Assembly (NCBI GenBank): GCA_046292385.1
Contig: JBKBRF010000079.1
Span: forward strand, 1 to 18,149
Reading direction: 5' to 3'
DNA from: Armatimonadota bacterium
GTDB lineage: Bacteria; Armatimonadota; SYMT01
Length of the DNA: 18,149 bases
Every line of letters starts with the position of its first letter. Within the stretch, counting starts at the first letter, position 1. The notes under the pieces are model-generated. The model saw nothing but the letters and a program-made list of their open reading frames with translations. It did not search any database and was not told where the DNA came from. Both the position numbers and the translations under genes were made by a program. This document shows, in pieces, positions 1-18,149 of the stretch.

Positions 1-121
1 GCGCGGTAATCTCTTTCATGGCGGTGTTTCCTTCCTTTGCCGAGTTGGCCCTCGGCTGCTTCTAGTCTCTAGAAGGAAGGTTCACCGCCTTCACCGTTTA
101 CACACCTTCTGATGGTAGCTC
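1..121 (-). mobile_element. Left end of an insertion sequence (probably IS110/IS1111 family), reading out of the window; copy 1
   Basis: Exact reverse complement of 18029-18149. It contains SD AAGGAAGG and an ATG (19..17) opening MKEITA, which resembles IS110 DEDD transposase N-termini (MxxITxIG[IL]D). It interrupts the ORF at 98-652. Confidence 0.7.
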
Positions 122-652
122 TACCCGCATACCCGGACGTGCAAGCCGCCAGTAGAGGTTCTTCTGATCCTGGGCGGCGATGAAGATCGACAGCCTCGGA
201 TCGAACGGCTGAAGTTCCGGGCGCGCCTTTCTGGTGACGGCTCTTACCATGAACTTCTGACTCGGTGCCGCCTCGAAGCGTCCCAGCGTGAAGCCGACGG
301 TCTTTCCAAAGAACTTGTGTGAACCGGGCTGACCAACGCTCTTGCCTCCCGTCTCCACGGACCAGTCCAATTGCACTGGATTACGTGCCGCGTGGTCTTC
401 GAACGGACTGCCCCGTGCGTACTCCACGGCTAACTCGTAGCTCGTGTCGTACTTGGCTGTGAAATCCGTGCTTGTGGTCGCTCCAGGCTGGAGCGCCAAC
501 GGGACACTCAGCGGGCGTAGCTCCGGCTCCGGAGTGACCGCCGCCGGGCTGTGGAAGAGGTAGGCGGCATACGCCAGTAGTGAGATGCCCAGCGCCAGCA
601 GTCCCCACCGGAGCGCCGAGAGTCCCTTTGCCCTGGAACGCGAGCTACCCAT
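98..652 (-). pseudogene. Membrane-anchored hypothetical protein, C-terminus truncated by IS insertion
   Basis: N-terminal TM segment (WGLLALGISLLAYAAYLF) followed by a beta-rich soluble region. The last residues ELPSEGV* are encoded inside the 121-bp repeat. Confidence 0.65.
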
Positions 653-917
653 GCTGCCCCTCAGCGTGTTCGGCGCAAGCGCCCCACCACGTCACATACT
701 CCGTCCCAGGCAAGGGTTGCGGCCACTACTCCGTCCACACCACGCTCTGAAGTGAAGTTCTTCCCGCTAGCCTGCAGAGCCGCCGACGCGGGCCACTGCC
801 TGGCCGACATCCTCGTCGACCTCAGCGGGATCAACGGGCACCGGCAGCAATCTCCAGCCCGCCAGTTCCTTCGCAAGCACAAATCTGCCGAGACACCCCT
901 GAGCGACTGCGATCCCA

Positions 918-1304
918 TCACAGTTGCGGTGCGCGATCTGGTAGGCCGGCGACGTAGTCAAGCCACATGTCAGCGTAGTCCAGGTACTCCTCGCGGATGT
1001 CTTCTTCTGGCAGTGAGTCGACTTCGCCATCAGCACGTCTTTTAGACGGCTTCGCGACGATCCGGTATCCCAGGACTCCCTCTGGAAGCCCGCAGCCTAC
1101 GTTGTCGAACTGGCCGAGCAGGAACCAACCGAAACCTTCGAGATGCTCGCTTACTAGTCTTCTCAACTCGAGACGCTGCTCCGGCGATAACTTCTCCCCG
1201 CCCAGGAACTTCTCGACGTCGGAGACTAGCGAGTCGGAAAGAGACGCAGGGCCATAGATTCCGTCAGCGATCGCAGAGAAGAGAGCCTGCGCAGATTCGT
1301 TCAT
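918..1304 (-). CDS. Hypothetical acidic helical protein (128 aa), possibly immunity-like island cargo
   Basis: Globular-looking composition from MNESAQALF onward; the upstream ORF extension looks non-coding. No family recognised with certainty. Confidence 0.6.
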   Translation of the reverse strand: MNESAQALFSAIADGIYGPASLSDSLVSDVEKFLGGEKLSPEQRLELRRLVSEHLEGFGWFLLGQFDNVGCGLPEGVLGYRIVAKPSKRRADGEVDSLPEEDIREEYLDYADMWLDYVAGLPDRAPQL

Positions 1305-1754
1305 GATTAACCGAGAGGAAGTTAGATTAGTGCCGAGCGAGTGGCGAGCCATGGGCTTGTCCGAGTCTTCCTTCCTGCGTCGCACATCTCCTACCAGAAC
1401 CGCGTAACTCCTGATTGGCGCAGAACGCCTGGCGGTGGGACGTGCTGTGAGGCGACTCTTGAACTCCCGGACCGAAGTTCGAGGTCGGCCACCCCGGGAC
1501 AGTAGGTGGACACTTCCGGAAACTGCCCCACCGAAAAACAGGGCCTAATCCCGCGAATATCCGGGGAGCCGGAGAGCCACTCCCAGAGCGCTGGAGCGTT
1601 CTCCCAGGCACGAATCAGCCGTGGAGACCCGCCTGGTGGGCTCTATCCTGGTTGAGTGCGTTAATGTTAAGAGAGCAAGCGGCAAGTGGAGAAAAATCCG
1701 CCCCCGCAGGCGGCTCGATGGCCCGGACCGAAGCTGGGTGAAGGAGCAGAGGGA

Positions 1755-3145: not shown

Positions 3146-3484
3146 TTACCAGCGGTTGCCGCCGCTGCGGCCGCCGCCACCGTAGCCGCCGCCACCGCCG
3201 CGGTTGCCACCGCCGTAGCCGCCGCCACCGCCACCGGTGCGCTCGGGGCGCGGGCGCGCCTCGTTGACGGTGAGGGTGCGGCCGCCCAGGTCCTTGCCGT
3301 TCATCGCCGAGATGGCGTTGTTCATCTGCTCGGCGTCCACTTCCACGAAGCCGAAGCCCTTGGCGCGGCCGTCGTAGTCGGTGGGGATCACCGCCGACTG
3401 GCACCCGAACTGCTCGAACGCAGCCTGGAGATCAGACTCGGTCGTGTTGTAGGAGAGGTTGCCGACGAAAAGTCGCTTGCTCAC
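3146..3484 (-). CDS. RRM (RNP-1) RNA-binding protein with glycine-rich tail (112 aa)
   Basis: RNP2 LFVGNL, RNP1 KGFGFVEV, NGKDLGGRTLTVNEARPR, Gly/Arg/Tyr tail; GTG start after GAAAGG. Confidence 0.95.
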   Translation of the reverse strand: MSKRLFVGNLSYNTTESDLQAAFEQFGCQSAVIPTDYDGRAKGFGFVEVDAEQMNNAISAMNGKDLGGRTLTVNEARPRPERTGGGGGGYGGGNRGGGGGYGGGGRSGGNRW

Positions 3485-3691
3485 GGTTGTTGCCTTTCCG
3501 GTCCGTATCGGTACCTGGATAAGAGGCGGCTCTAAGACCCGAGCCGCATGGGAACAGGACAGACGGGACGCGGGCAGTCGGCTACCAGAAGCAACAGAAA
3601 AGCCCTCGCGGCGCCGCGGAGGCACTATCGAGAGGGCTTGGGTCTTCCGAAACGGTAATGCGCTACGAACTCGGTCTGAACTTGTAGCGGT

Positions 3692-5511: not shown

Positions 5512-6254
5512 TTTTCACTCTCCTGAATCGGTTCGTCCGAGGGGTCTTGCCAGTCCTCGTCCGCAGGGTCCTGCCAGCCGCAGGCCGAGTCCGGAAGCGG
5601 CACCGTCGCTTCCACCCGCCCCGGCTGCGCGATGAGCAGGCCGGATTCGGGGTCGGTCTCCACGACCCAGCCGGGGGTCGTGATACGCGCTTCTTCCTGC
5701 CGCACCGTCTCCACTTCCCAGCGCGCCTTCAGCACCGGCGCGGGAGCGGCGCGGTGGATGATCCGGCCTGCCGAGCGCTCCCGGGACGTACTGGTGAACA
5801 CCGGCGCGTGCCGCTGGGGAGAGGCGACTCTCCGCTCCGCCTGCTGGCTCTCCCGCTCCGCGTCCCCCTCCCCTCGCGGGGAGTAAGCGGTCAGCAGCAC
5901 CGGAGGCCAGCTATCGGCCGACGGCCGCGGGCGCAGAGCCTCACGCTCCAGCAGCGACGGCCGGAAGTAGGGATCGGACGGCAGGTAGGGGGACGGCCAG
6001 GTTTCGCCGCCGCCCTGCACCATCGCCACGGCCAGCGCGGCAGGCACCGCACACGAGCCGGCGAGCATCCAGACCATCAGCGAAGGCCGCCTCCGCCGCT
6101 TCCGCTCGCGAAACTGCTGCGCGGACGGCTCCAGCGCCTTCCAGACGAAGTCGGCAGGCACCGGCTCGTCCGCCTCGAAATCGGCCGCGGCGCGTAGAAG
6201 GTCTTCTACTCGCCGGGCGCTCTCTTCTTCCTGGCCCTTCTGTAGTTGACTCAC
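5508..6254 (-). CDS. Putative single-TM anti-sigma factor
   Basis: Directly downstream of and coupled (GTGA) to the ECF sigma; short N-terminal cytoplasmic part, basic cluster RERKRRRR, one TM helix, largely low-complexity C-terminus. Confidence 0.65.
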   Translation of the reverse strand: MSQLQKGQEEESARRVEDLLRAAADFEADEPVPADFVWKALEPSAQQFRERKRRRRPSLMVWMLAGSCAVPAALAVAMVQGGGETWPSPYLPSDPYFRPSLLEREALRPRPSADSWPPVLLTAYSPRGEGDAERESQQAERRVASPQRHAPVFTSTSRERSAGRIIHRAAPAPVLKARWEVETVRQEEARITTPGWVVETDPESGLLIAQPGRVEATVPLPDSACGWQDPADEDWQDPSDEPIQESEK

Positions 6255-6859
6255 GCTTCGCAGCCTTTCGGTTTGCGCTCGATGGGAAGCATCTCATCGA
6301 CGCCGTAGGGGCCCAGGTCCTTCAGCAGCCCGGAGAGGCGGCGGAAGCCCGCCCGCATCCGGCTGCGCAGGGTCGCTTCCGGAATCCTCTCCATCCGCGC
6401 CACCTCTGCCAGGGTGAACCCTTCAAAGTAGTGGAGCCAGATCGGCACTCGCTGCGGCTCCGGCAGCGATGCTACTTCTTGCCGCACGCGCCGCTGCACC
6501 TCGCGGAGCTGCGCCTCGTCCGCCGGCTGGTCCGGCCCCGCCTCCTCCGGGCCTCCCGAGGGAGAATCGAAGAGCGTGACGCGGCGCTTCCAGGCCGACC
6601 GCAGGTGATCGTGCCCCACGTTCAGCGCGATGCGGCAGAGCCACGCGTCGAACGGCGCGCCGCGCTGGTAGCTGCGGAGGCCGCGGTAGGCGCGAAGCAC
6701 CGCTTCCTGCGCCAGGTCCTCGGCGTCGGCGCCGCGCGCGAACGAGTTGGCAATTCGCCAGACCCGCTTCCGATAGCGGTCACACAGCGCAGCAAACGCA
6801 CTCGGGTCCCCCTGGAGGGCCCTGTCTACTAATTCTGCATCCGGGAGATGCTCGTTCAA
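6251..6859 (-). CDS. ECF (sigma-70 group 4) RNA polymerase sigma factor
   Basis: Region 2 DAEDLAQEAVLRAY...FDAWLCRIALN and region 4 LPEPQR...GFTLAEVA...EATLRSRM; GGAGG SD, TTG start. Confidence 0.95.
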   Translation of the reverse strand: MNEHLPDAELVDRALQGDPSAFAALCDRYRKRVWRIANSFARGADAEDLAQEAVLRAYRGLRSYQRGAPFDAWLCRIALNVGHDHLRSAWKRRVTLFDSPSGGPEEAGPDQPADEAQLREVQRRVRQEVASLPEPQRVPIWLHYFEGFTLAEVARMERIPEATLRSRMRAGFRRLSGLLKDLGPYGVDEMLPIERKPKGCEA

Positions 6860-7307: not shown

Positions 7308-7592
7308 TTAGGCGGTCTGCGCTTCGGCCGTAGCGGCCTGCTGCTTCTGCAGCTTCGCCAGGCGCGCTTTGCGGCGGTTGGCGGCGTTCGGATGGATGAT
7401 GCCGCGCTTCGCGGCCTTGTCCAGGATCGAGCTGGTCTGGCTCACCACCTGACCGGTCTCTTCCGCGCCGCTCTCGATAGCGGTGCGGCTCTTCTTCATG
7501 TACGTCTTGATGGCGCTGCGGACCGACTGGTTCCGCTCGGCACGCCGTCGCGATTTTCTGATATCCCTGATTGCAGACCGAAGGTTGGCCAC
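7308..7592 (-). CDS. rpsT: 30S ribosomal protein S20
   Basis: MANLRSAIRDIRKS...RN...RSAIKT...LDKAAKRGIIHPNAANRRKARL signature; AGGAG SD; divergent from murJ. Confidence 0.98.
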   Translation of the reverse strand: MANLRSAIRDIRKSRRRAERNQSVRSAIKTYMKKSRTAIESGAEETGQVVSQTSSILDKAAKRGIIHPNAANRRKARLAKLQKQQAATAEAQTA

Positions 7593-7624
7593 GTTTCTAC
7601 TCTCCTCGCGCGGAAAACCTCACG

Positions 7625-7654
7625 AATATATCAGAACGATGAGTGCGAGTGCAA
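7625..7654 (-). promoter_or_regulatory. Sigma70 promoter for rpsT (extended -10)
   Basis: TTGCAC-18 nt-TATATT with TG-n before the -10 box; overlaps the murJ start codon. Confidence 0.55.
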
Positions 7655-9357
7655 CCCCTGGGCCGGAGGACGCCGGCGACGCCTCTCCCCGCGCCGGCAC
7701 CGGTACCCGGATTGCCTCCGCCGCCGGCATCATGGTGGCGGCCATCCTGCTCAGCCGGGTGCTGGGCCTCGTCCGTGACATCGTCGTCGCCTACTATTTT
7801 GGCGCGAGCGACGTCACCGACGCCTACATCGCGGCATTCCGACTACCTGACCTCCTCTACTTCCTCATCGCCGGCGGCGCGCTCAGCAGCGCGTTCATTC
7901 CGGTCTTCACGGAATACCTCACCAAGGGCGATGAGGAGAGCGCGTGGCACGTCTTCAGTGTCTTCGGGACGGCGCTCACCTTCCTGCTTACCTTCATCAT
8001 CGTCGCCGGGTGGATCTTTACGCCGTGGCTGCTGGTGCCGCTGGCGCCCGGCTACCTGGACGATCCGAGCAAGTTCCAGCTCACCGTGCACCTGACCCGG
8101 ATCGTGCTGCCGGCCCAGCTCTGCTTCTTCATCGGCGGCCTGATGATGAGCACGCTCTACGCGCGGCAGCACTTCCTCTTTCCAGCACTCGGACCGGTGG
8201 TCTACAACATCGCCATCATCATCGGCGGCGCGATCGGCGGGCAGTTCTGGGGGCCGGTCCGGGGAATCGACGGCCTGGCCTGGGGCGTGGTGGTGGGCGC
8301 CTTCCTCGGGAACGTGGTGATGCAGCTCTGGATGCTGCGCCGCCTGGGAGTCCGCTACCACTTCTCGCTCAACGTGCGCCACGAGGGCGTGGTCCGCGTG
8401 GCGAAGCTGATGCTCCCGGTGCTGCTGGGCCTCTCCCTCCCCTATCTCTGCGTCATCCTGAGCACGCCGTTCGCCAGCGACCTGGGCGACCGGCCGGTAA
8501 CCTGGCTCGACCGCGCGAACAAGCTGATGCAGATGCCGCTCGGCATCTTCGCCCAGGCGCTGAGCGTGGCGATCTTCCCCACCCTTTCCGCCCTGGCGGC
8601 GCAGCAGGATTGGGACGGGTTCCGCAAGCAGTTCAGCCTGGGAATCCGCTCGGTGCTCTTCCTGACCATTCCCTCCGCGGTGTTGATCATCATCCTGGCG
8701 GTGCCGCTCTCCGCCATCCTGTTCCAGCACGGCAAGGGAACCTGGGAAGACACGGTGGCGACCGCTTCCGCCGCCGGCGTCTACGCGCTGGCAATCTTCG
8801 CCGTCTCCGCGCAGCAGGTAGTGAACCGGGGCTTCTACTCCCGGCAGAATACCGTAACGCCGATGCTGGTCGGCTCCGGCGCCACCTTCGTCTTCCTGGC
8901 GCTGAACGTGCTGCTGCTCGGAATCCCAGGACAGAAGTCGGTCGTCAGCTTCGCGCAGCAGGTGCACGGGTCGAAGCTGCTCGCGCTGGCGTATGTGCTG
9001 GCGATGGCGATCTACCTCACCGTGCTGCTGGTCCTCTTCCAGCGGGCGATGGGCGGTATCCGCGGTCGGGAGATCGCCGCTTCCGTGGTGCGGGTGATCG
9101 TCGCCTCCGTGCTGATGGGCGCGGCGGCCTGGGGCGCGCAGGGGCTCTTCCACCAGTGGCTCGTGCCGTACGGCCCTGGCGGCGTGCGGACTCTCGGAAC
9201 GCTGGCGGAGATCCTGCTCTGCAGCGGGGTCGGCGGCGTGGTCTACCTCGCGGCAGTAAAGCTGATGCGTGTGCCGGAAGCGGAGTTTGTCTTCGACGCC
9301 GTCTCGCGCCGCTTCGCCCGCTTCGGACGCCGCGGCCAGACCCCCGCCGCCAAGTGA
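7639..9357 (+). CDS. murJ: Lipid II flippase MurJ (MviN)
   Basis: LSRVLGLVRD...YFGAS...DAYIAAFRLPDL...GGALSSAFIPVF and QMPLGIFAQALSVAIFPTLS motifs, many TM helices, classic rpsT-murJ divergent synteny; start reassigned to 7639. Confidence 0.96.
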   Translation: MSASATPGPEDAGDASPRAGTGTRIASAAGIMVAAILLSRVLGLVRDIVVAYYFGASDVTDAYIAAFRLPDLLYFLIAGGALSSAFIPVFTEYLTKGDEESAWHVFSVFGTALTFLLTFIIVAGWIFTPWLLVPLAPGYLDDPSKFQLTVHLTRIVLPAQLCFFIGGLMMSTLYARQHFLFPALGPVVYNIAIIIGGAIGGQFWGPVRGIDGLAWGVVVGAFLGNVVMQLWMLRRLGVRYHFSLNVRHEGVVRVAKLMLPVLLGLSLPYLCVILSTPFASDLGDRPVTWLDRANKLMQMPLGIFAQALSVAIFPTLSALAAQQDWDGFRKQFSLGIRSVLFLTIPSAVLIIILAVPLSAILFQHGKGTWEDTVATASAAGVYALAIFAVSAQQVVNRGFYSRQNTVTPMLVGSGATFVFLALNVLLLGIPGQKSVVSFAQQVHGSKLLALAYVLAMAIYLTVLLVLFQRAMGGIRGREIAASVVRVIVASVLMGAAAWGAQGLFHQWLVPYGPGGVRTLGTLAEILLCSGVGGVVYLAAVKLMRVPEAEFVFDAVSRRFARFGRRGQTPAAK

Positions 9358-9506: not shown

Positions 9507-10787
9507 CTACGGCGCGCGATCCACCTTCCACTGGGAATCTGCGAAGTCCATGAAGCGCTCCCAGTCGTAAGCGGTCAGGTCGTGGCCGCCGCGCCGGATG
9601 TGGTAGCCCATGCGACCGCGCCGGACCGGCGTGTCGAGCGGCGGCATCTGGTTCGCGCCGAGTGCGGGCTGGCCGTAGAGCGCGTAGACCGGAGCGGCGT
9701 GCGCCAGGGAGAGGAACTCGCCGCGCTGGTCCGCCCAGAAGTCGGCGTCCGCGCTGGCGACGTAGACCGGCCGCGGCGCCATCAGCGCGAGGAGCTGGTG
9801 CTGGTCGACCGGCAGCTCGTCCTCGCGTCCGTTGAACTGCCGGAACGCCGGCGCGAACCAGTATGGGAAGCCGGTGTTGATCCGCTCCACCGTCTCGCCG
9901 AAGCGGCGGCGGCTCAAGGCGGCGCCGCCGCAGCCGGAGTCGTTGGAGACCACCAGCGCGAACCGGCGGTCCTGCGCTCCCGCCCAGAGCGCGGTCTTGC
10001 CGCCCCGGGAGTGGCCGACCACCGCCACGCGGCGCGAGTCGACCTCGGGTAGCTGCTGCAGGTAGTCGAGCACGCGGCTGGCACCCCAGGCCCACGCCGC
10101 CAGAGTGCCCCAGGCGTTCCGGCCCGGAACCCCGCTGCCGGCGGGCCATACGCCGCGCACCCCGCCTTCCCGAGCAGCGGCCCCGTCGCGGTCCGGGTCG
10201 ACGTCGTTCGTGCGGAAGACCGCGGCAGCGTAACCGCGCGCGAGGATCTCCTCCGCTGGCCAGAACCCCGTCCGCTCCCGCCGGGTGGGGTCGGCGCTCG
10301 CTTCCGGACGGTTGTTGATCAGCAGGAACGCCGGCGCGGGGCCGCTCCGGCGGTTGGGCACCAGGACCGACGCCGGAAAGGTGAACGATGCCTCTCCGAT
10401 CTCGGCGGTGATCTCTACCTGCCGCAGCGTGGCGCGGCCCCCCATTACCGCCGGATCGGTCCGCACCTCCCGGAACCGCACCCGCGGCTGCTCCTCCGGA
10501 CTGCGGCCGTAGACGAGGTCGCGGAAGAGCGCCAGCGTAGCCGGGCGCGCCACTCGCTCCCACTCCACCCGCGACCGAACCGGCGTGCCGGGGACCACCG
10601 CCAGCGGATCCGGCAGCGTGTACTTCGGAACGTCGCTCTCGCGGAAGATCCAGGCGGTCCCCTTCTGCGCCAGCTCCGCCAGCAGCTTCGGGTCGGCCTG
10701 CCAGCCTTTCGCCGCCTCGCCGGCCGAGACAGCTGCCGCGCCGCCGAGGCACGCTGCGAAGATGAGAGTCCTGATTCGTGAGCGCAC
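9507..10787 (-). CDS. Secreted CE15-family carbohydrate esterase (glucuronoyl esterase-like alpha/beta hydrolase)
   Basis: WAWGASRVLDYL, nucleophile motif GHSRGGK, SGCGGAALSRR, LPVDQHQLLALMAPRP, DFWAD..GEF, GGHD; signal peptide; GGAGG SD before GTG 10787. Confidence 0.92.
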   Translation of the reverse strand: MRSRIRTLIFAACLGGAAAVSAGEAAKGWQADPKLLAELAQKGTAWIFRESDVPKYTLPDPLAVVPGTPVRSRVEWERVARPATLALFRDLVYGRSPEEQPRVRFREVRTDPAVMGGRATLRQVEITAEIGEASFTFPASVLVPNRRSGPAPAFLLINNRPEASADPTRRERTGFWPAEEILARGYAAAVFRTNDVDPDRDGAAAREGGVRGVWPAGSGVPGRNAWGTLAAWAWGASRVLDYLQQLPEVDSRRVAVVGHSRGGKTALWAGAQDRRFALVVSNDSGCGGAALSRRRFGETVERINTGFPYWFAPAFRQFNGREDELPVDQHQLLALMAPRPVYVASADADFWADQRGEFLSLAHAAPVYALYGQPALGANQMPPLDTPVRRGRMGYHIRRGGHDLTAYDWERFMDFADSQWKVDRAP

Positions 10788-10890
10788 GCCTCTACCTCCC
10801 CTACCGGCAGCCCTTGGACGCCGAATGCCGGCGCCGGTACCGCAAGGGCGTTCGGCCACCGGCGCCCGGCTCCCCTTCCCGTCAAACAAG

Positions 10891-11644: not shown

Positions 11645-13210
11645 TTACGCGAGCGGCCGGAGCCGTTTCTCCCGCACCGCTCTCAGCCGTCGCCGGAGGC
11701 GGCTGAACTCCGCGCGGATCGACTTCGAGCGCCGCCCTATGTTGTGCGCCAGGTTCCTGGTCTCCAGCGGGTCCTTCTTGAGGTCGTACATCTCCCACTG
11801 GCTGGGGACCTGACCGTCTGCGTCGTAGTACTCGGCGATCTTATAACGGCCCTCGCGGATGGCGACGATCCGGTTGGGGGGCGTGGGGTACGGACCGGTT
11901 TTCTGCCCGGACTGGTAGTCGTCGTAGGTGAACACCACGTAGTCCTGCACCTTCCCGCCGGAGGTGGGGTTCAGGACGAGCCGAGAGTAGTCCGCGCCCT
12001 GCCAGTTCGCCTTCTCCGCTTTCGGCAGGCCGAACAGGCCGGCGAGCGTGGGCAGAAAGTCGACGTGCGAGACGAGCGCGTTCGAGCGATACGCCTTGCG
12101 ATAGAGCTTCGGGTTGGAGAAGACCAGCGGCACCCGCATCGCCTCCTCGTAGCAGTTGAAGTTCTTCTGGCGCTGGCCCCCGTGCGTCAGGCCCATCTCA
12201 CCGTGGTCGGCGGTGCGGATCACCAGCGTGTCGTTGCGCAGGCCCAGCTCTTCCAGCGTGTCGAGCACCTGCACCAGGTAGTTGTCCGACGCCTTGAGCA
12301 GGTTGCCGTAGAAGTTCAGGTACTTGCGCTTCATCTCCGGCGTGGGGAGCGGCCCCAGGGCCTGGCTGAGCAGCAGGAACTGGCGCTGGACGCTCGGCTT
12401 GTTGTCGAGCTCCTCCCCAACCGTTGCCGGGAGGTCGATCTCGCCCTCGAGCCAGGAATCATCGTAGCCCGCTTCCTGGTACACCGTCGGGTAGAAGAGG
12501 ACGTCGTGCGGGTTGACCAGCGAGATGATGAGGAAGAACGGCTGCTGCGCCAGTGCCTGGCTCCGGAGGTAAGCGAGCACGCCTTCGTGGCCCGTCTCCA
12601 GGTCTCCGTCATCGTTGATACACCGCCCGTCGTGGTCGGTCACCCCGCCGCCCGCCTGCTCGATGTCCTGGTTGGCGCCGGAGTCCGGCGGGTTCCACCG
12701 GTGGAATCCGTACCTCTCGAGATCGGACGGCCCCCACTCGGCGCCCTCCGGCTTGCTGAGGTGCCACTTGCCCTTGTACACCACCTGGTAGCCGGCGGCG
12801 GCGGCCACCGTAGCGATGTTCTTCAGCTCCGTCGGCGTCTCCACTTGCGGGTACTCGCCGGCTGGCATGTCTTCTTCCAGGGTGTACCGCACGCCGTGCT
12901 GGGCCGGGAGATACCCGGTTAGCCAGGTAGCCCGCGCGGGAGAGCACATGCACGCGTTCGTGAAGGCGTTCTCGAAGCTCAATCCGTGCCGCTTGAGCCG
13001 GGTCAGCCCGGGGAGATTCCGTTCTTCCCAGCCTCGCGGGAAGTGCAGGGTCTTTCGCTCCTGGTCGGTCAGGAAGACGACCACGTTCATACCGAGCGGC
13101 GCCTTCTTCCGGGCCGCGAGCATCCCCGCAGCCCCGATGCCGAGCAGCGGTGCGGAGACCGCCGCCGACTTCAGCAAGGTTCTGCGAGTGAGCCGATGAT
13201 CAACTTGCAC
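11645..13210 (-). CDS. Tat-exported formylglycine-dependent sulfatase (S1)
   Basis: Tat motif TRRTLLK, NVVVFLTDQ, CSPARATWLTG, GKWHL, NPHD, TADHGEM, RVPL, YDLKKDPLET; AAAGGA SD. Confidence 0.95.
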   Translation of the reverse strand: MQVDHRLTRRTLLKSAAVSAPLLGIGAAGMLAARKKAPLGMNVVVFLTDQERKTLHFPRGWEERNLPGLTRLKRHGLSFENAFTNACMCSPARATWLTGYLPAQHGVRYTLEEDMPAGEYPQVETPTELKNIATVAAAAGYQVVYKGKWHLSKPEGAEWGPSDLERYGFHRWNPPDSGANQDIEQAGGGVTDHDGRCINDDGDLETGHEGVLAYLRSQALAQQPFFLIISLVNPHDVLFYPTVYQEAGYDDSWLEGEIDLPATVGEELDNKPSVQRQFLLLSQALGPLPTPEMKRKYLNFYGNLLKASDNYLVQVLDTLEELGLRNDTLVIRTADHGEMGLTHGGQRQKNFNCYEEAMRVPLVFSNPKLYRKAYRSNALVSHVDFLPTLAGLFGLPKAEKANWQGADYSRLVLNPTSGGKVQDYVVFTYDDYQSGQKTGPYPTPPNRIVAIREGRYKIAEYYDADGQVPSQWEMYDLKKDPLETRNLAHNIGRRSKSIRAEFSRLRRRLRAVREKRLRPLA

Positions 13211-15141: not shown

Positions 15142-16872
15142 ATGGGTCTGGTCGTCGACGGATCGATCATCATCCTCTACTTCGTGGGGATCATCGCCAT
15201 CGGCCTCTACATGGGGCGGCGCGAGGATAACCTGAAGGACTTCGCCCTCGGCGGCCGGCAGGTGCCGTGGTGGGCGGTGATGGCCTCGATCATCGCGGCG
15301 GAGACGAGCGCGGCGACCTTCCTCGGCGCCCCGGGGGAGGGGTTCCAGAAGCGCAGCCTGGCCTACGTGCAGCTGGTGCTGGGCCTCATCATCGGCCGCT
15401 ACATCGTGGGCTACGTCTTCCTGAAGCCGTACTACCTCTACAAGGTCTACACCGTCTACGACTACCTCGGCATCCGCTTCGGGCCGATGAGCAAGAGCTA
15501 CATCTCCGCGCTCTTCCTGGTGATGCGGACGCTCGCCTCCGGCACGCGCCTCTTCGTGCCCTCGCTGGTGATGGTGCTGGCGTGGCGGATGTTCTCCGGC
15601 GGCACGGAGGGGGTGCAGTTCAGCCAGAACGCCGTGACGGAGGTCCAGCCCTACCTGGTGGCGATCGTCTTCCTGACCCTCGCCACCTGCCTCTACACGG
15701 CGCTCGGCGGGATCAAGGCGGTGATCTGGACCGACGTGATCCAGGCGACGCTGATGTTCGGGAGCGCGCTGGTCGCCATCGGCACGCTGCTCTACCAGGT
15801 CGGCGGCTTCGACGCCGTGGCGCAGGCGGTGCCGCAGATGACGCGGATCGAGGGCTACTTCCTGACCGGCTTCGAAGCGAGCCGGATCGCGGAGTGGAAG
15901 GCGCAGCAGGGGGTCCAGGAGATGGACCTCTGGCAGTACGTGAAGCTGATCCTGGCGAGCGACTACACCCTCTTCTCCGCGCTGATCGGCACCACCGTGA
16001 TGAACATGGGCATGTTCGGGACCGACCAGGACATGGTCCAGCGCATGCTCACCGCGGAGACCTACCAGAAGGCGCGCCGCAGCCTGATCACCGCGGCCTT
16101 CGTGGATATCCCGATCGCCGCGGCGTTCACCTTCATCGGGATCCTGCTCTACGTCTACTACCAGCAGGACCCCACCCACCAACCGGCGGCCAACGCGGAC
16201 GTCTTCGGCTCCTACATCCTCAACGTGATGCCGGTCGGCATCCGCGGCCTGGTGCTGGCGGGCGTCTTCGCCACCGCCATGGGGTCGCTTTCCGCCGCGC
16301 TGAACGCCCTCGCGACCAGCGCGACCAACGACTGGTTCCTGCCGAAGGTGCGGGGCAAGGAAGAGCACTACTACATCAACGCCGCGCGGGTCTTCACGGG
16401 GATCTTCGCGATCCTGATGATCCTCATCGCCGCTGCCTTCGCCTACGCCAAGGTGACCAACCCGGACGTGCGCATCATCCCGGTGGTGCTCGGGATCGCC
16501 GGCTTCATCATCGGGCCGATGCTTGGCGTCTTCCTGATCGGGATGCTCACGCCGAACCGGGGGTCGGACACCGGCAACATCATCGCGGTGACCTGCGGCC
16601 TCGCGGCGACGATCGTCACCGGCGAGCTGCACATTTACTTCGCCAACCTGGCCGCCCCCCTCTTCGGGATGGAGCCGACGACCTTCGCAGCGCCGGCCTG
16701 GCTGCCGAAGGTCTCCTTCACCTGGTACGCGCTGATCGGCGCGCTGGTGGTCTTCCTGGTCGGCATCCTCTTCCGCACCCCGGAGAAGGTGCTGGAGCGC
16801 GCCCGCCGCCAGGCCGAAGAAGCGCAGTCCGGCGACGACCGCCCCATGGCGCTGCGGGAGACCTCCGGGTAG
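15142..16872 (+). CDS. Sodium:solute symporter (SSS/SLC5 family)
   Basis: DFALGGRQVPWWAV, SIIAAETSAATFLGAPG, YTALGGIKAVIWTDVIQ, GTDQDMVQRMLTA, ATAMGSLSAALNALA. Confidence 0.96.
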   Translation: MGLVVDGSIIILYFVGIIAIGLYMGRREDNLKDFALGGRQVPWWAVMASIIAAETSAATFLGAPGEGFQKRSLAYVQLVLGLIIGRYIVGYVFLKPYYLYKVYTVYDYLGIRFGPMSKSYISALFLVMRTLASGTRLFVPSLVMVLAWRMFSGGTEGVQFSQNAVTEVQPYLVAIVFLTLATCLYTALGGIKAVIWTDVIQATLMFGSALVAIGTLLYQVGGFDAVAQAVPQMTRIEGYFLTGFEASRIAEWKAQQGVQEMDLWQYVKLILASDYTLFSALIGTTVMNMGMFGTDQDMVQRMLTAETYQKARRSLITAAFVDIPIAAAFTFIGILLYVYYQQDPTHQPAANADVFGSYILNVMPVGIRGLVLAGVFATAMGSLSAALNALATSATNDWFLPKVRGKEEHYYINAARVFTGIFAILMILIAAAFAYAKVTNPDVRIIPVVLGIAGFIIGPMLGVFLIGMLTPNRGSDTGNIIAVTCGLAATIVTGELHIYFANLAAPLFGMEPTTFAAPAWLPKVSFTWYALIGALVVFLVGILFRTPEKVLERARRQAEEAQSGDDRPMALRETSG

Positions 16873-17564: not shown

Positions 17565-18005
17565 TCAGACGCGACTCAGGAGCTCTCGGTAGTTCTCGTA
17601 CTCGTTCTTCCAGTCCCCGTAGCATCCGACCAGGCGGCACTTCGGGCAGCGCAAGCCGAGATAAAGCCACTTCACGTCCTCGGATTCGCGGTAGAGCGCG
17701 ACCCCGACCGTGATCTCGAACTCCTCTGTGCCGCAAAGACATTCGGCTTCTTCGAGGTCCGCCTCTTCGAGGTAATCCTCGCTGTCCCCGATCGGGTGTT
17801 CGTGACGGCACACGGCGCAGATCCGGACCGCCGCACCTACGTTCTCGTCCACCAGCAAACGAAATCGCCCGCCGCTACAGTTGCATTTCGCATCAGCGAA
17901 GTGCTCGGCGACGTAGGCATTCGCGTCGCTGTACTCAAGTAGATAGGTTCGGATGTCCGCCTGAGCATCGCCGTACGAATACTCTCCGCGTTGTCTCAAT
18001 GCCAT
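17565..18005 (-). CDS. Cys-rich hypothetical protein with duplicated CxC...CxxC module (146 aa)
   Basis: GGAGGA SD before ATG 18005 (MALRQRGEY); CNC/CAVC and CLC/CPKC motifs. Confidence 0.8.
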   Translation of the reverse strand: MALRQRGEYSYGDAQADIRTYLLEYSDANAYVAEHFADAKCNCSGGRFRLLVDENVGAAVRICAVCRHEHPIGDSEDYLEEADLEEAECLCGTEEFEITVGVALYRESEDVKWLYLGLRCPKCRLVGCYGDWKNEYENYRELLSRV

Positions 18006-18028
18006 CTCGTCCTCCGCCGGCGACGACT

Positions 18029-18149
18029 GAGCTACCATCAGAAGGTGTGTAAACGGTGAAGGCGGTGAACCTTCCTTCTAGAGACTAGAAGCAGCCGAGG
18101 GCCAACTCGGCAAAGGAAGGAAACACCGCCATGAAAGAGATTACCGCGC
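18029..18149 (+). mobile_element. Left end of an insertion sequence (probably IS110/IS1111 family), reading out of the window; copy 2
   Basis: Exact reverse complement of 1-121; SD AAGGAAGG at 18113-18120 and ATG at 18131 (MKEITA, truncated by the window end). Confidence 0.7.

Follow-up and report, generated by a model that had tools for sequence, protein, structure and literature searches.

A conserved leader RNA with covarying helices in the left end of an IS256-family insertion sequence, a candidate brake on transposase translation

The left end of an IS256-family insertion sequence (IS) carries a leader that folds into a compact, multi-helix structure, and this fold is conserved and covaries among relatives of the element. 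The window, that is, the whole stretch of DNA that was analysed (18,149 nt), is the entire contig C79 of an Armatimonadota genome assembled in 91 contigs and 7.04 Mb. Positions 18029-18149 are the left end of the element, and 18061-18130 are the 5' leader of the transposase mRNA, which probably occludes the ribosome binding site in cis and keeps translation low. The features of this end, of the flanking duplication and of the second copy at the opposite end of the window are as follows (MFE marks pairings of the minimum free energy fold).

18021..18028, + strand: target-site duplication CGACGACT, 8 bp; its other copy lies where contig C89 starts, behind the right end of the IS
18029..18068, + strand: left terminal inverted repeat (IRL), its boundary set by 8 contig ends that are identical from 18029 on
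18033-38, + strand: -10-like TACCAT, behind the IRL tip GAGC
18044-53, + strand: family core GGTGTGTAAA of the IRL
18060-65, + strand: second conserved IRL block AGGCGG, overlapping the P1 5' arm
18061..18067, + strand: P1 5' arm GGCGGTG, pairing with 18124-30 (MFE)
18070..18076, + strand: P2 5' arm, anti-Shine-Dalgarno sequence (anti-SD) CCTTCCT, forming 7 pairs with 18114-20 (MFE)
18077..18089, + strand: P3 hairpin TCTAG-AGA-CTAGA, 18077-81 with 18085-89 (MFE)
18094..18111, + strand: P4 hairpin GCCGAG-GGCCAA-CTCGGC, 18094-99 with 18106-11 (MFE)
18114..18120, + strand: P2 3' arm, the Shine-Dalgarno (SD) AGGAAGG (MFE)
18124..18130, + strand: P1 3' arm CACCGCC, directly abutting the start codon (MFE)
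18131..18149, + strand: ATG (18131-18133) and the first 6 transposase codons (MKEITA...), ending with the contig
1..121, - strand: second IS left end with leader, inverted, 100% identical over 121 nt; the leader model matches 17-121

The insertion sequence and its neighbourhood

The 121 nt from 18029 to 18149 recur at 100% identity on 8 contig ends, the window's own opposite end (inverted) included, and it follows from this match that the assembly is broken within a multi-copy repeat starting exactly at 18029. The opposite end of the IS is found on 7 contig ends, again at 100% identity. The IRL reads GAGCTACCATCAGAAGGTGTGTAAA and the right repeat (IRR), in reverse complement, GAGCTCTTGTCAATAGGTGTGTAAA; the two are imperfect terminal inverted repeats of 25 nt or more, both with a subterminal TGTAAA motif. 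The target duplications measure 8-10 bp. Five pairs of left and right ends were joined by script (four with 8 bp, one with 9 bp), and two further flank pairs, one of 10 bp and one of 9 bp with a single mismatch, were read from the same output, which leaves all 7 right ends matched to a left end by flank repeat and 1 left end partnerless. The copy at 1-121 shows a separate duplication with contig C69 (ATGCGGGTA versus TTGCGGGTA). Because each of the two copies in the window has its own target duplication, they represent independent insertions, not a composite transposon. An IS-free (empty) site, in which 17900-18028 is fused directly to the C89 flank, is present on contigs X2 and X3 of two soil metagenomes from other studies, and the insertion is therefore recent or polymorphic.

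The body of the IS is absent from the assembly, and tblastn queries made of short peptides from the N- and C-terminus located neither a paralogue nor a complete copy in this genome. When 41 related genomes were searched at the DNA level, a single weak match turned up, 72% over 92 nt, in a genome of the same phylum (locus L002). This match is the left end of an element with a like inverted repeat, a like leader layout and an ORF of 443 residues, the product of which (P0001) has PF00872, the Mutator-family transposase, as its sole Pfam match (E 3e-58). The 28-residue C-terminus of the window's IS (FEDG...AA*), read from the right end, fits the tail that is common to the relatives. IS256-family elements are described as having a subterminal TGTAAA motif and 8-bp duplications, and, for the family and its member ISCth4, a -35 element in the right end and a -10 element in the left end that make up a promoter across the 5-6-bp circle junction (PMC7780238, in excerpt). 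The TGTAAA ends, the duplications of the 8-bp type, the Mutator-type relatives and the split promoter motifs therefore place the element in the IS256 family and not with the IS110-type elements. Judged from its sequence, the element is a recently active, multi-copy IS256-family IS, an assignment that draws on its ends, its leader, its duplications and 34 residues, the body of the transposase being unassembled.

The rest of the window consists of ordinary chromosomal genes, among them the following.

3146-3625, - strand: RRM-domain protein
6251-6859, - strand: ECF-type sigma factor
7483-9357: MurJ
9507-10889, - strand: glucuronyl-esterase-like protein
11645-13210, - strand: sulfatase
15142-16872: sodium:solute symporter

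The IS lies 23 nt upstream of the likely start (ATG 18005, with GGAGG upstream) of a Cys-rich ORF at 17565-18005 on the minus strand. This ORF encodes ~146 residues and has no Pfam match; the 157-residue version in the list of open reading frames borrows its ATG from the IS end. Many other G000 contig ends form shared-sequence groups of 2-6 members, and several further repeat families fragment the assembly.

Fold, conservation and covariation of the leader

The modelled fold of the window's leader is far beyond chance. Folded without constraint, 18040-18149 (110 nt) has an MFE of -42.6 kcal/mol, whereas shuffled sequences average -26.0 (z = -5.37) and none of 200 matches its stability. The complementary segments on which the original prediction was built are all present in the sequence: GGCGGTG (18061-67) with CACCGCC (18124-30), the anti-SD CCTTCCTT (18070-77) with the SD AAGGAAGG (18113-20), and the hairpin arms GCCGAG (18094-99) and CTCGGC (18106-11). 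The same is true of the competing complements that it listed, GAAGG (18058-62) with CCTTC (18070-74) and CTTCTAG (18075-81) with CTAGAAG (18085-91), and of the two copies of CGGTGAA (18054-60 and 18063-69). In the alignment, this tandem CGGTGAA (18054-18069) is not seen in the leaders of relatives. Eight loci searched against Rfam gave 0 family matches at E up to 1, and the sole output, an unrelated ALIL match below threshold, came from another part of L002.

A protein-guided scan of one genome contig collection confirmed 552 relatives, and leaders were drawn from the best 80 of these 552 loci. The inverted-repeat core is followed by the same leader in 76 of the best 80; two of the remaining four loci are truncated and two are without a leader in the region read. 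Together with the window and L002, this set comprises 29 distinct leaders. They derive from Acidobacteriota, Latescibacterota, Longimicrobiales, Chloroflexi/Dehalococcoidia, Nitrospirae, Methylomirabilota, Gamma- and Alphaproteobacteria, and the window's own phylum.

When each leader is folded singly and without constraint, all 29 form P1 and P2 around one or two inner hairpins. In 29/29 leaders the 5' arm of P1 lies right behind the inverted repeat, P1 ends with a gap of 0 to -2 nt to the start codon, and the SD core is at least half paired. A hairpin at the P3 site is likewise universal; its sequence is highly variable (GGGU/ACCC, CGCUG/CAGCG and GAUUG/CAAUC are examples) and differs in nearly all groups. 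The GC-rich P4 is present in 26 leaders and missing from L049, L052 and L058, so that P3 and P4 occur together in 26/29. Stability relative to shuffled sequence averages z = -4.8 and is at z <= -2.6 in 28 of the 29, the outlier being L067 (z = +0.7), which looks decayed. The same fold is found in five additional leaders (L091 and L096-L099).

The helices change sequence and retain pairing. Among relatives the arms of P1 read GGCGGUG/CACCGCC, GGCGACGU/ACGUCGCC, GGCGGCGU/ACGCCGCC, GGUGGUAU/AUACCACC or GGCGAU/AUCGCC, and in P2 the anti-SD variant tracks the SD variant (CCUUCC/GGAAGG, CCUUUCU/AGAAAGG, CCUCUCU/AGAGAGG, CUUCCC/GGGAAG). From a plain MAFFT alignment, RNAalifold detects P1, with compensatory changes in 5 of its 8 pairs, and 90-92% of P1 cells are paired among the relatives. 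In model-fitted alignments the covariation score is 0.305 versus 0.172 for shuffled controls (0/500 shuffles reach it), and 0.312 versus 0.169 once P3 is added; because such alignments lean to the structure and are made of related sequences, the shuffle controls make these differences look more significant than they are. With P3 included, 81.5% of cells are paired versus 44-55% when the partners are slid, P2 and P3 being registered imperfectly (75-78% and 57% of cells paired, respectively). Conservation and covariation among relatives had been set beforehand as the check on the proposal that the leader of an IS transposase gene sequesters its SD in a multi-stem fold, and the proposal is supported: P1 and P2 are kept in 29/29 leaders, and 17 of the 22 pairs examined with P3 have changed on both sides.

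Conserved unpaired nucleotides of the kind that mark riboswitches were not found, as the lengths and sequences of junctions and loops vary freely on inspection. All three reading frames are closed ahead of the ATG in 23/29 leaders, and 49 of 87 frames are closed ahead of P1, which is not distinctive. In L002 the longest ORF (172-1557, minus strand) takes its start from within the leader (MSRKRKPG...), 18 codons upstream of the conserved one; gene calls made automatically for this clade may thus overrun the structured leader.

The distribution of the leader was followed with a model of it, which picks out all 8 left ends when run on the window's own genome. Matches occur in 7 of 151 genomes of the phylum, the window's own counted, and in 0/6 genomes of the same family, a sporadic occurrence that is the pattern of a mobile element. 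The cultured Allomeiothermus silvanus DSM 9946 harbors a 77.8-bit copy (L091 332-434) on plasmid pMESIL01; the end of this copy coincides with the start annotated for an IS256-family transposase CDS. The model does not match three more distant IS256 members (Tsukamurella, ISRer3 and Antarctobacter; ~47% identical); the leader motif therefore marks a sub-clade. Leaders of three distant IS256 members, folded as well, are unrelated in sequence and support no claim. Scans of genome and metagenome contig collections for exact leader patterns returned nothing. Two contigs from RNA libraries (X18 and X19) contain variant leader copies with different upstream flanks and are uninformative on transcription, start or strand. 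A search of open-access papers and bioRxiv turned up no account of such a fold in the leaders of IS256-family elements.

Derivatives of the leader are also present. L010 (G000 contig C67:3780-3851) is a 5'-truncated relic, 93% identical, that keeps P3, P4, the SD and the ATG. It is without the 5' arms of P1 and the anti-SD and without a transposase-like ORF behind it, and it also occurs on the soil-metagenome contig X3. At L099 (G063:C16:35746-35850 onward), only a few bases separate the left end and leader from the right-end sequence TTTACACACCTATTGACAAG; the locus is without a transposase gene and is a miniature, MITE-like derivative.

Translational control and alternative readings

In the proposed brake, the sense RNA would fold into a closed four-helix leader. 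P1 would link its 5' arm, part of the extended left repeat, to a 3' arm reaching up to the start codon, P2 would pair the anti-SD with the SD, and the P3 and P4 hairpins would keep these arms in place. Not only the SD but also the spacer and the stretch leading to the AUG would become double-stranded, and for that reason 30S binding would be rare and transposase translation low. This should hold whichever promoter is in use, be it host read-through from the left or the element's own promoter formed by abutted ends. We infer that translation is lowered by the fold, that the sense strand is the one on which it acts and that transcription starts upstream of P1. The logic of the sense strand is seen in the 3' arms, which always include the SD and stop 0 to 2 nt away from the start codon. 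The predicted energy needed to open the ribosome binding site is 15.5 kcal/mol in the window and averages 16.7 kcal/mol over the 29 leaders (range 6-22). So stable a fold would nearly abolish translation at equilibrium, and some route of opening is therefore needed.

The position of the promoter bears on whether the fold is transcribed. A crude consensus scan, applied to elements of diverse hosts, detected no sigma-70-like site in 17850-18149, nor any in the L054 and L068 left ends, and the only such site in L017 lies ~110 nt within the coding region. In the window's IS, TTGACA is located 8-13 nt from the tip of the IRR, and TACCAT occupies nt 5-10 of the IRL; among relatives, TTGAC is present in 24/26 right ends and TAnnnT in 27/29 left ends. 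With a 6-bp junction the two halves would be spaced by 7+6+4 = 17 bp, which matches the description of ISCth4/IS256 (PMC7780238, in excerpt). With such split halves, transcription would begin upstream of P1, at about nt 17 of the left end, and the fold should then be in every transcript. Thermodynamics picks no strand, given the near-equal stability of the two (sense better in 17/29 leaders, mean difference 0.36 kcal/mol) and the few G-U pairs (23/693).

Several other explanations of the structure can be weighed against this evidence. The regulatory reading in the original prediction had two parts, of which sequestration of the SD in the IS leader is borne out and a two-state switch through competing hairpins is not. 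In such a switch, GAAGG/CCTTC and CTTCTAG/CTAGAAG would form first on the nascent RNA, leaving the SD briefly free before the closed fold is reached. The window's leader is indeed predicted to form exactly those two hairpins when the ribosome binding site is forced open or when the RNA is folded before the SD has emerged, and in the prefix that precedes the SD at least 3 anti-SD nucleotides are paired upstream in 27/29 leaders. Such upstream pairing of the anti-SD is, however, below that of shuffled upstream sequence (3.9 versus 5.5 nt; -4.2 versus -6.3 kcal/mol), the 7 nt paired in the window are equalled by 17% of shuffles, and the base ahead of AGG, which would lengthen the hairpin, is A, G, C or U among relatives. 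A two-state switch is thus very improbable. Slightly less so, and still improbable, is that the structure belongs to an antisense RNA over the SD and ATG, of the type of IS10 RNA-OUT, IS200 art200 or the 5' antisense RNA of IS256, with P4 and the following U-run as its terminator. Sense and antisense strands fold equally well, P4 with its T-run scores as an intrinsic terminator on the minus strand of L017 (650-669) and L054 (632-647), and a 5' antisense RNA of IS256 has been reported in E. faecalis (PMC10266640, in excerpt). Yet no minus-strand terminator-like site was found in the window or L068 and no antisense promoter in L017, L054 or L068, and the fixed position of the 3' arm relative to the SD and AUG is left unexplained. 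Moreover, an antisense RNA that ends at P4 would be without the partners of P1 and P2 and therefore cannot explain the covarying helices. In some members of the clade (L017 and L054), the minus-strand sites might nonetheless end an antisense transcript. The third option, that the leader is the non-coding guide (bridge) RNA of an IS110-type recombinase, was also raised in the original prediction and has next to no likelihood left. A structured RNA adjoining the end of a mobile element is all that recommends it. It is refuted by the terminal inverted repeats with TGTAAA, by the 8-10-bp duplications and by relatives whose sole Pfam family is PF00872; in addition, the fold includes the SD and abuts the ATG, and there are zero Rfam matches at E up to 1.

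A further possibility retains the sequestering fold and supplies it with a route of opening, though on present folding models it is unlikely. The leader would sense a transposition intermediate: in transcripts that run across an abutted IRR-IRL, as in an excised circle or a tandem dimer, an RNA mimic from the right end would unlock the SD. This mimic is the inner part of the IRR, GRAAGG..GCCGCC-UGA (the last transposase codons, ..AA*), which copies the 3' half of the leader. It would take the 5' arm of P1 and the anti-SD into a long hairpin and free the SD, and host read-through transcripts would stay off. The likeness of IRL and IRR does run past the 25-bp core, through AGGCGG (P1 5' arm) and then a pyrimidine block (anti-SD), and over nt 26-62 cognate ends have a likeness score of 5.3, compared with 3.3 when the ends are non-cognate and 2.2 (sd 1.5) with shuffled sequence. 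In silico, the SD region has a mean unpaired probability of 0.24, which climbs to 0.46 once the cognate IRR and a 6-nt spacer are placed ahead of the leader and is still 0.24 with a shuffled IRR. In the window's IS the probability rises from 0.26 to 0.71, and the unpaired nucleotides in the MFE fold rise from 3 to 11 of 12. The rise is at least 0.25 in 12/23 elements; against this, it is below 0.25 in 11/23 and nil in L043 and three Longimicrobiales-type elements (L068, L073 and L086), and the cognate end ranks first of all ends in only 5/23. The inferred junction promoter also fires downstream of the IRR, which would lie upstream of the leader only in round-the-circle or tandem-copy transcripts, and the extended repeat may be merely transposase-binding DNA. 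The support for release of the SD comes from equilibrium folding only. If such sensing did occur, the transposase would be made only once an excised circle exists, and a resting chromosomal copy would be silent under host read-through.

The right end has a further regularity. Transposases end in Ala-Ala-stop, encoded by GCCGCC and a stop codon, in 18/18 relatives read and in the window's right end (C89); the stop is TGA, or TAA in L061 and L068. As GCCGCC is the inverted-repeat partner of the left-end AGGCGG, the protein tail may be shaped by the repeat.

Relation to known systems

A leader that probably occludes its ribosome binding site in cis can be set beside several known systems in which an RNA structure adjoins an IS end. 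The bridge or guide RNA of IS110 elements is a structured RNA at the IS end that acts in trans through target- and donor-binding loops and serves a DEDD recombinase, and IS110 elements are without inverted ends. These traits are unmatched here, where inverted repeats, target duplications and PF00872 relatives are found. Closer in arrangement are the fold-back structures of IS10 and IS50, in which sequence beside the left inverted repeat pairs with the translation start so that transcripts from outside are untranslated. The resident promoter of IS10 and IS50 lies downstream of the 5' arm, and native transcripts therefore escape. The present element is unlike them in that no internal promoter was found, and the conserved promoter halves would place the start upstream of the 5' arm.

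The likeness to IS256 and ISCth4 (PMC7780238, in excerpt) consists of TGTAAA at either end, 8-bp duplications, promoter halves that span the junction and, in the relatives of the present element, a Mutator-type DDE transposase. IS256-family elements reshape genomes, those of clinical staphylococci and enterococci among them, and little is known of how translation of their transposases is controlled. In the excerpted text of PMC10266640, the controls known so far for IS256 and its family are a weak promoter and antisense RNAs only, and a leader fold is not described. With the present findings, a large sub-clade gains a conserved, covarying leader RNA that is a testable candidate cis-regulator and a candidate new RNA family.

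The closest functional precedent is the stem-loop in the 5'UTR of IS200 tnpA in Salmonella and E. coli, which sequesters a near-consensus SD and inhibits 30S binding (PMC4513863, in excerpt). IS200 differs in belonging to the HUH family, in having no inverted ends and in relying on a single long stem-loop, whereas the leader described here has a P1/P2 clamp around two hairpins. IS200 also has a mapped antisense RNA and Hfq control, and is without sequence or Rfam relation to this leader. The two are alike in that a cis-encoded inverted repeat at the left end of the IS lies in the 5'UTR of the transposase and pairs the SD with an upstream anti-SD, here in 29/29 leaders. By this analogy, the leader RNA is best read as an uncatalogued form of a known type of control, the SD-sequestering transposase leader.
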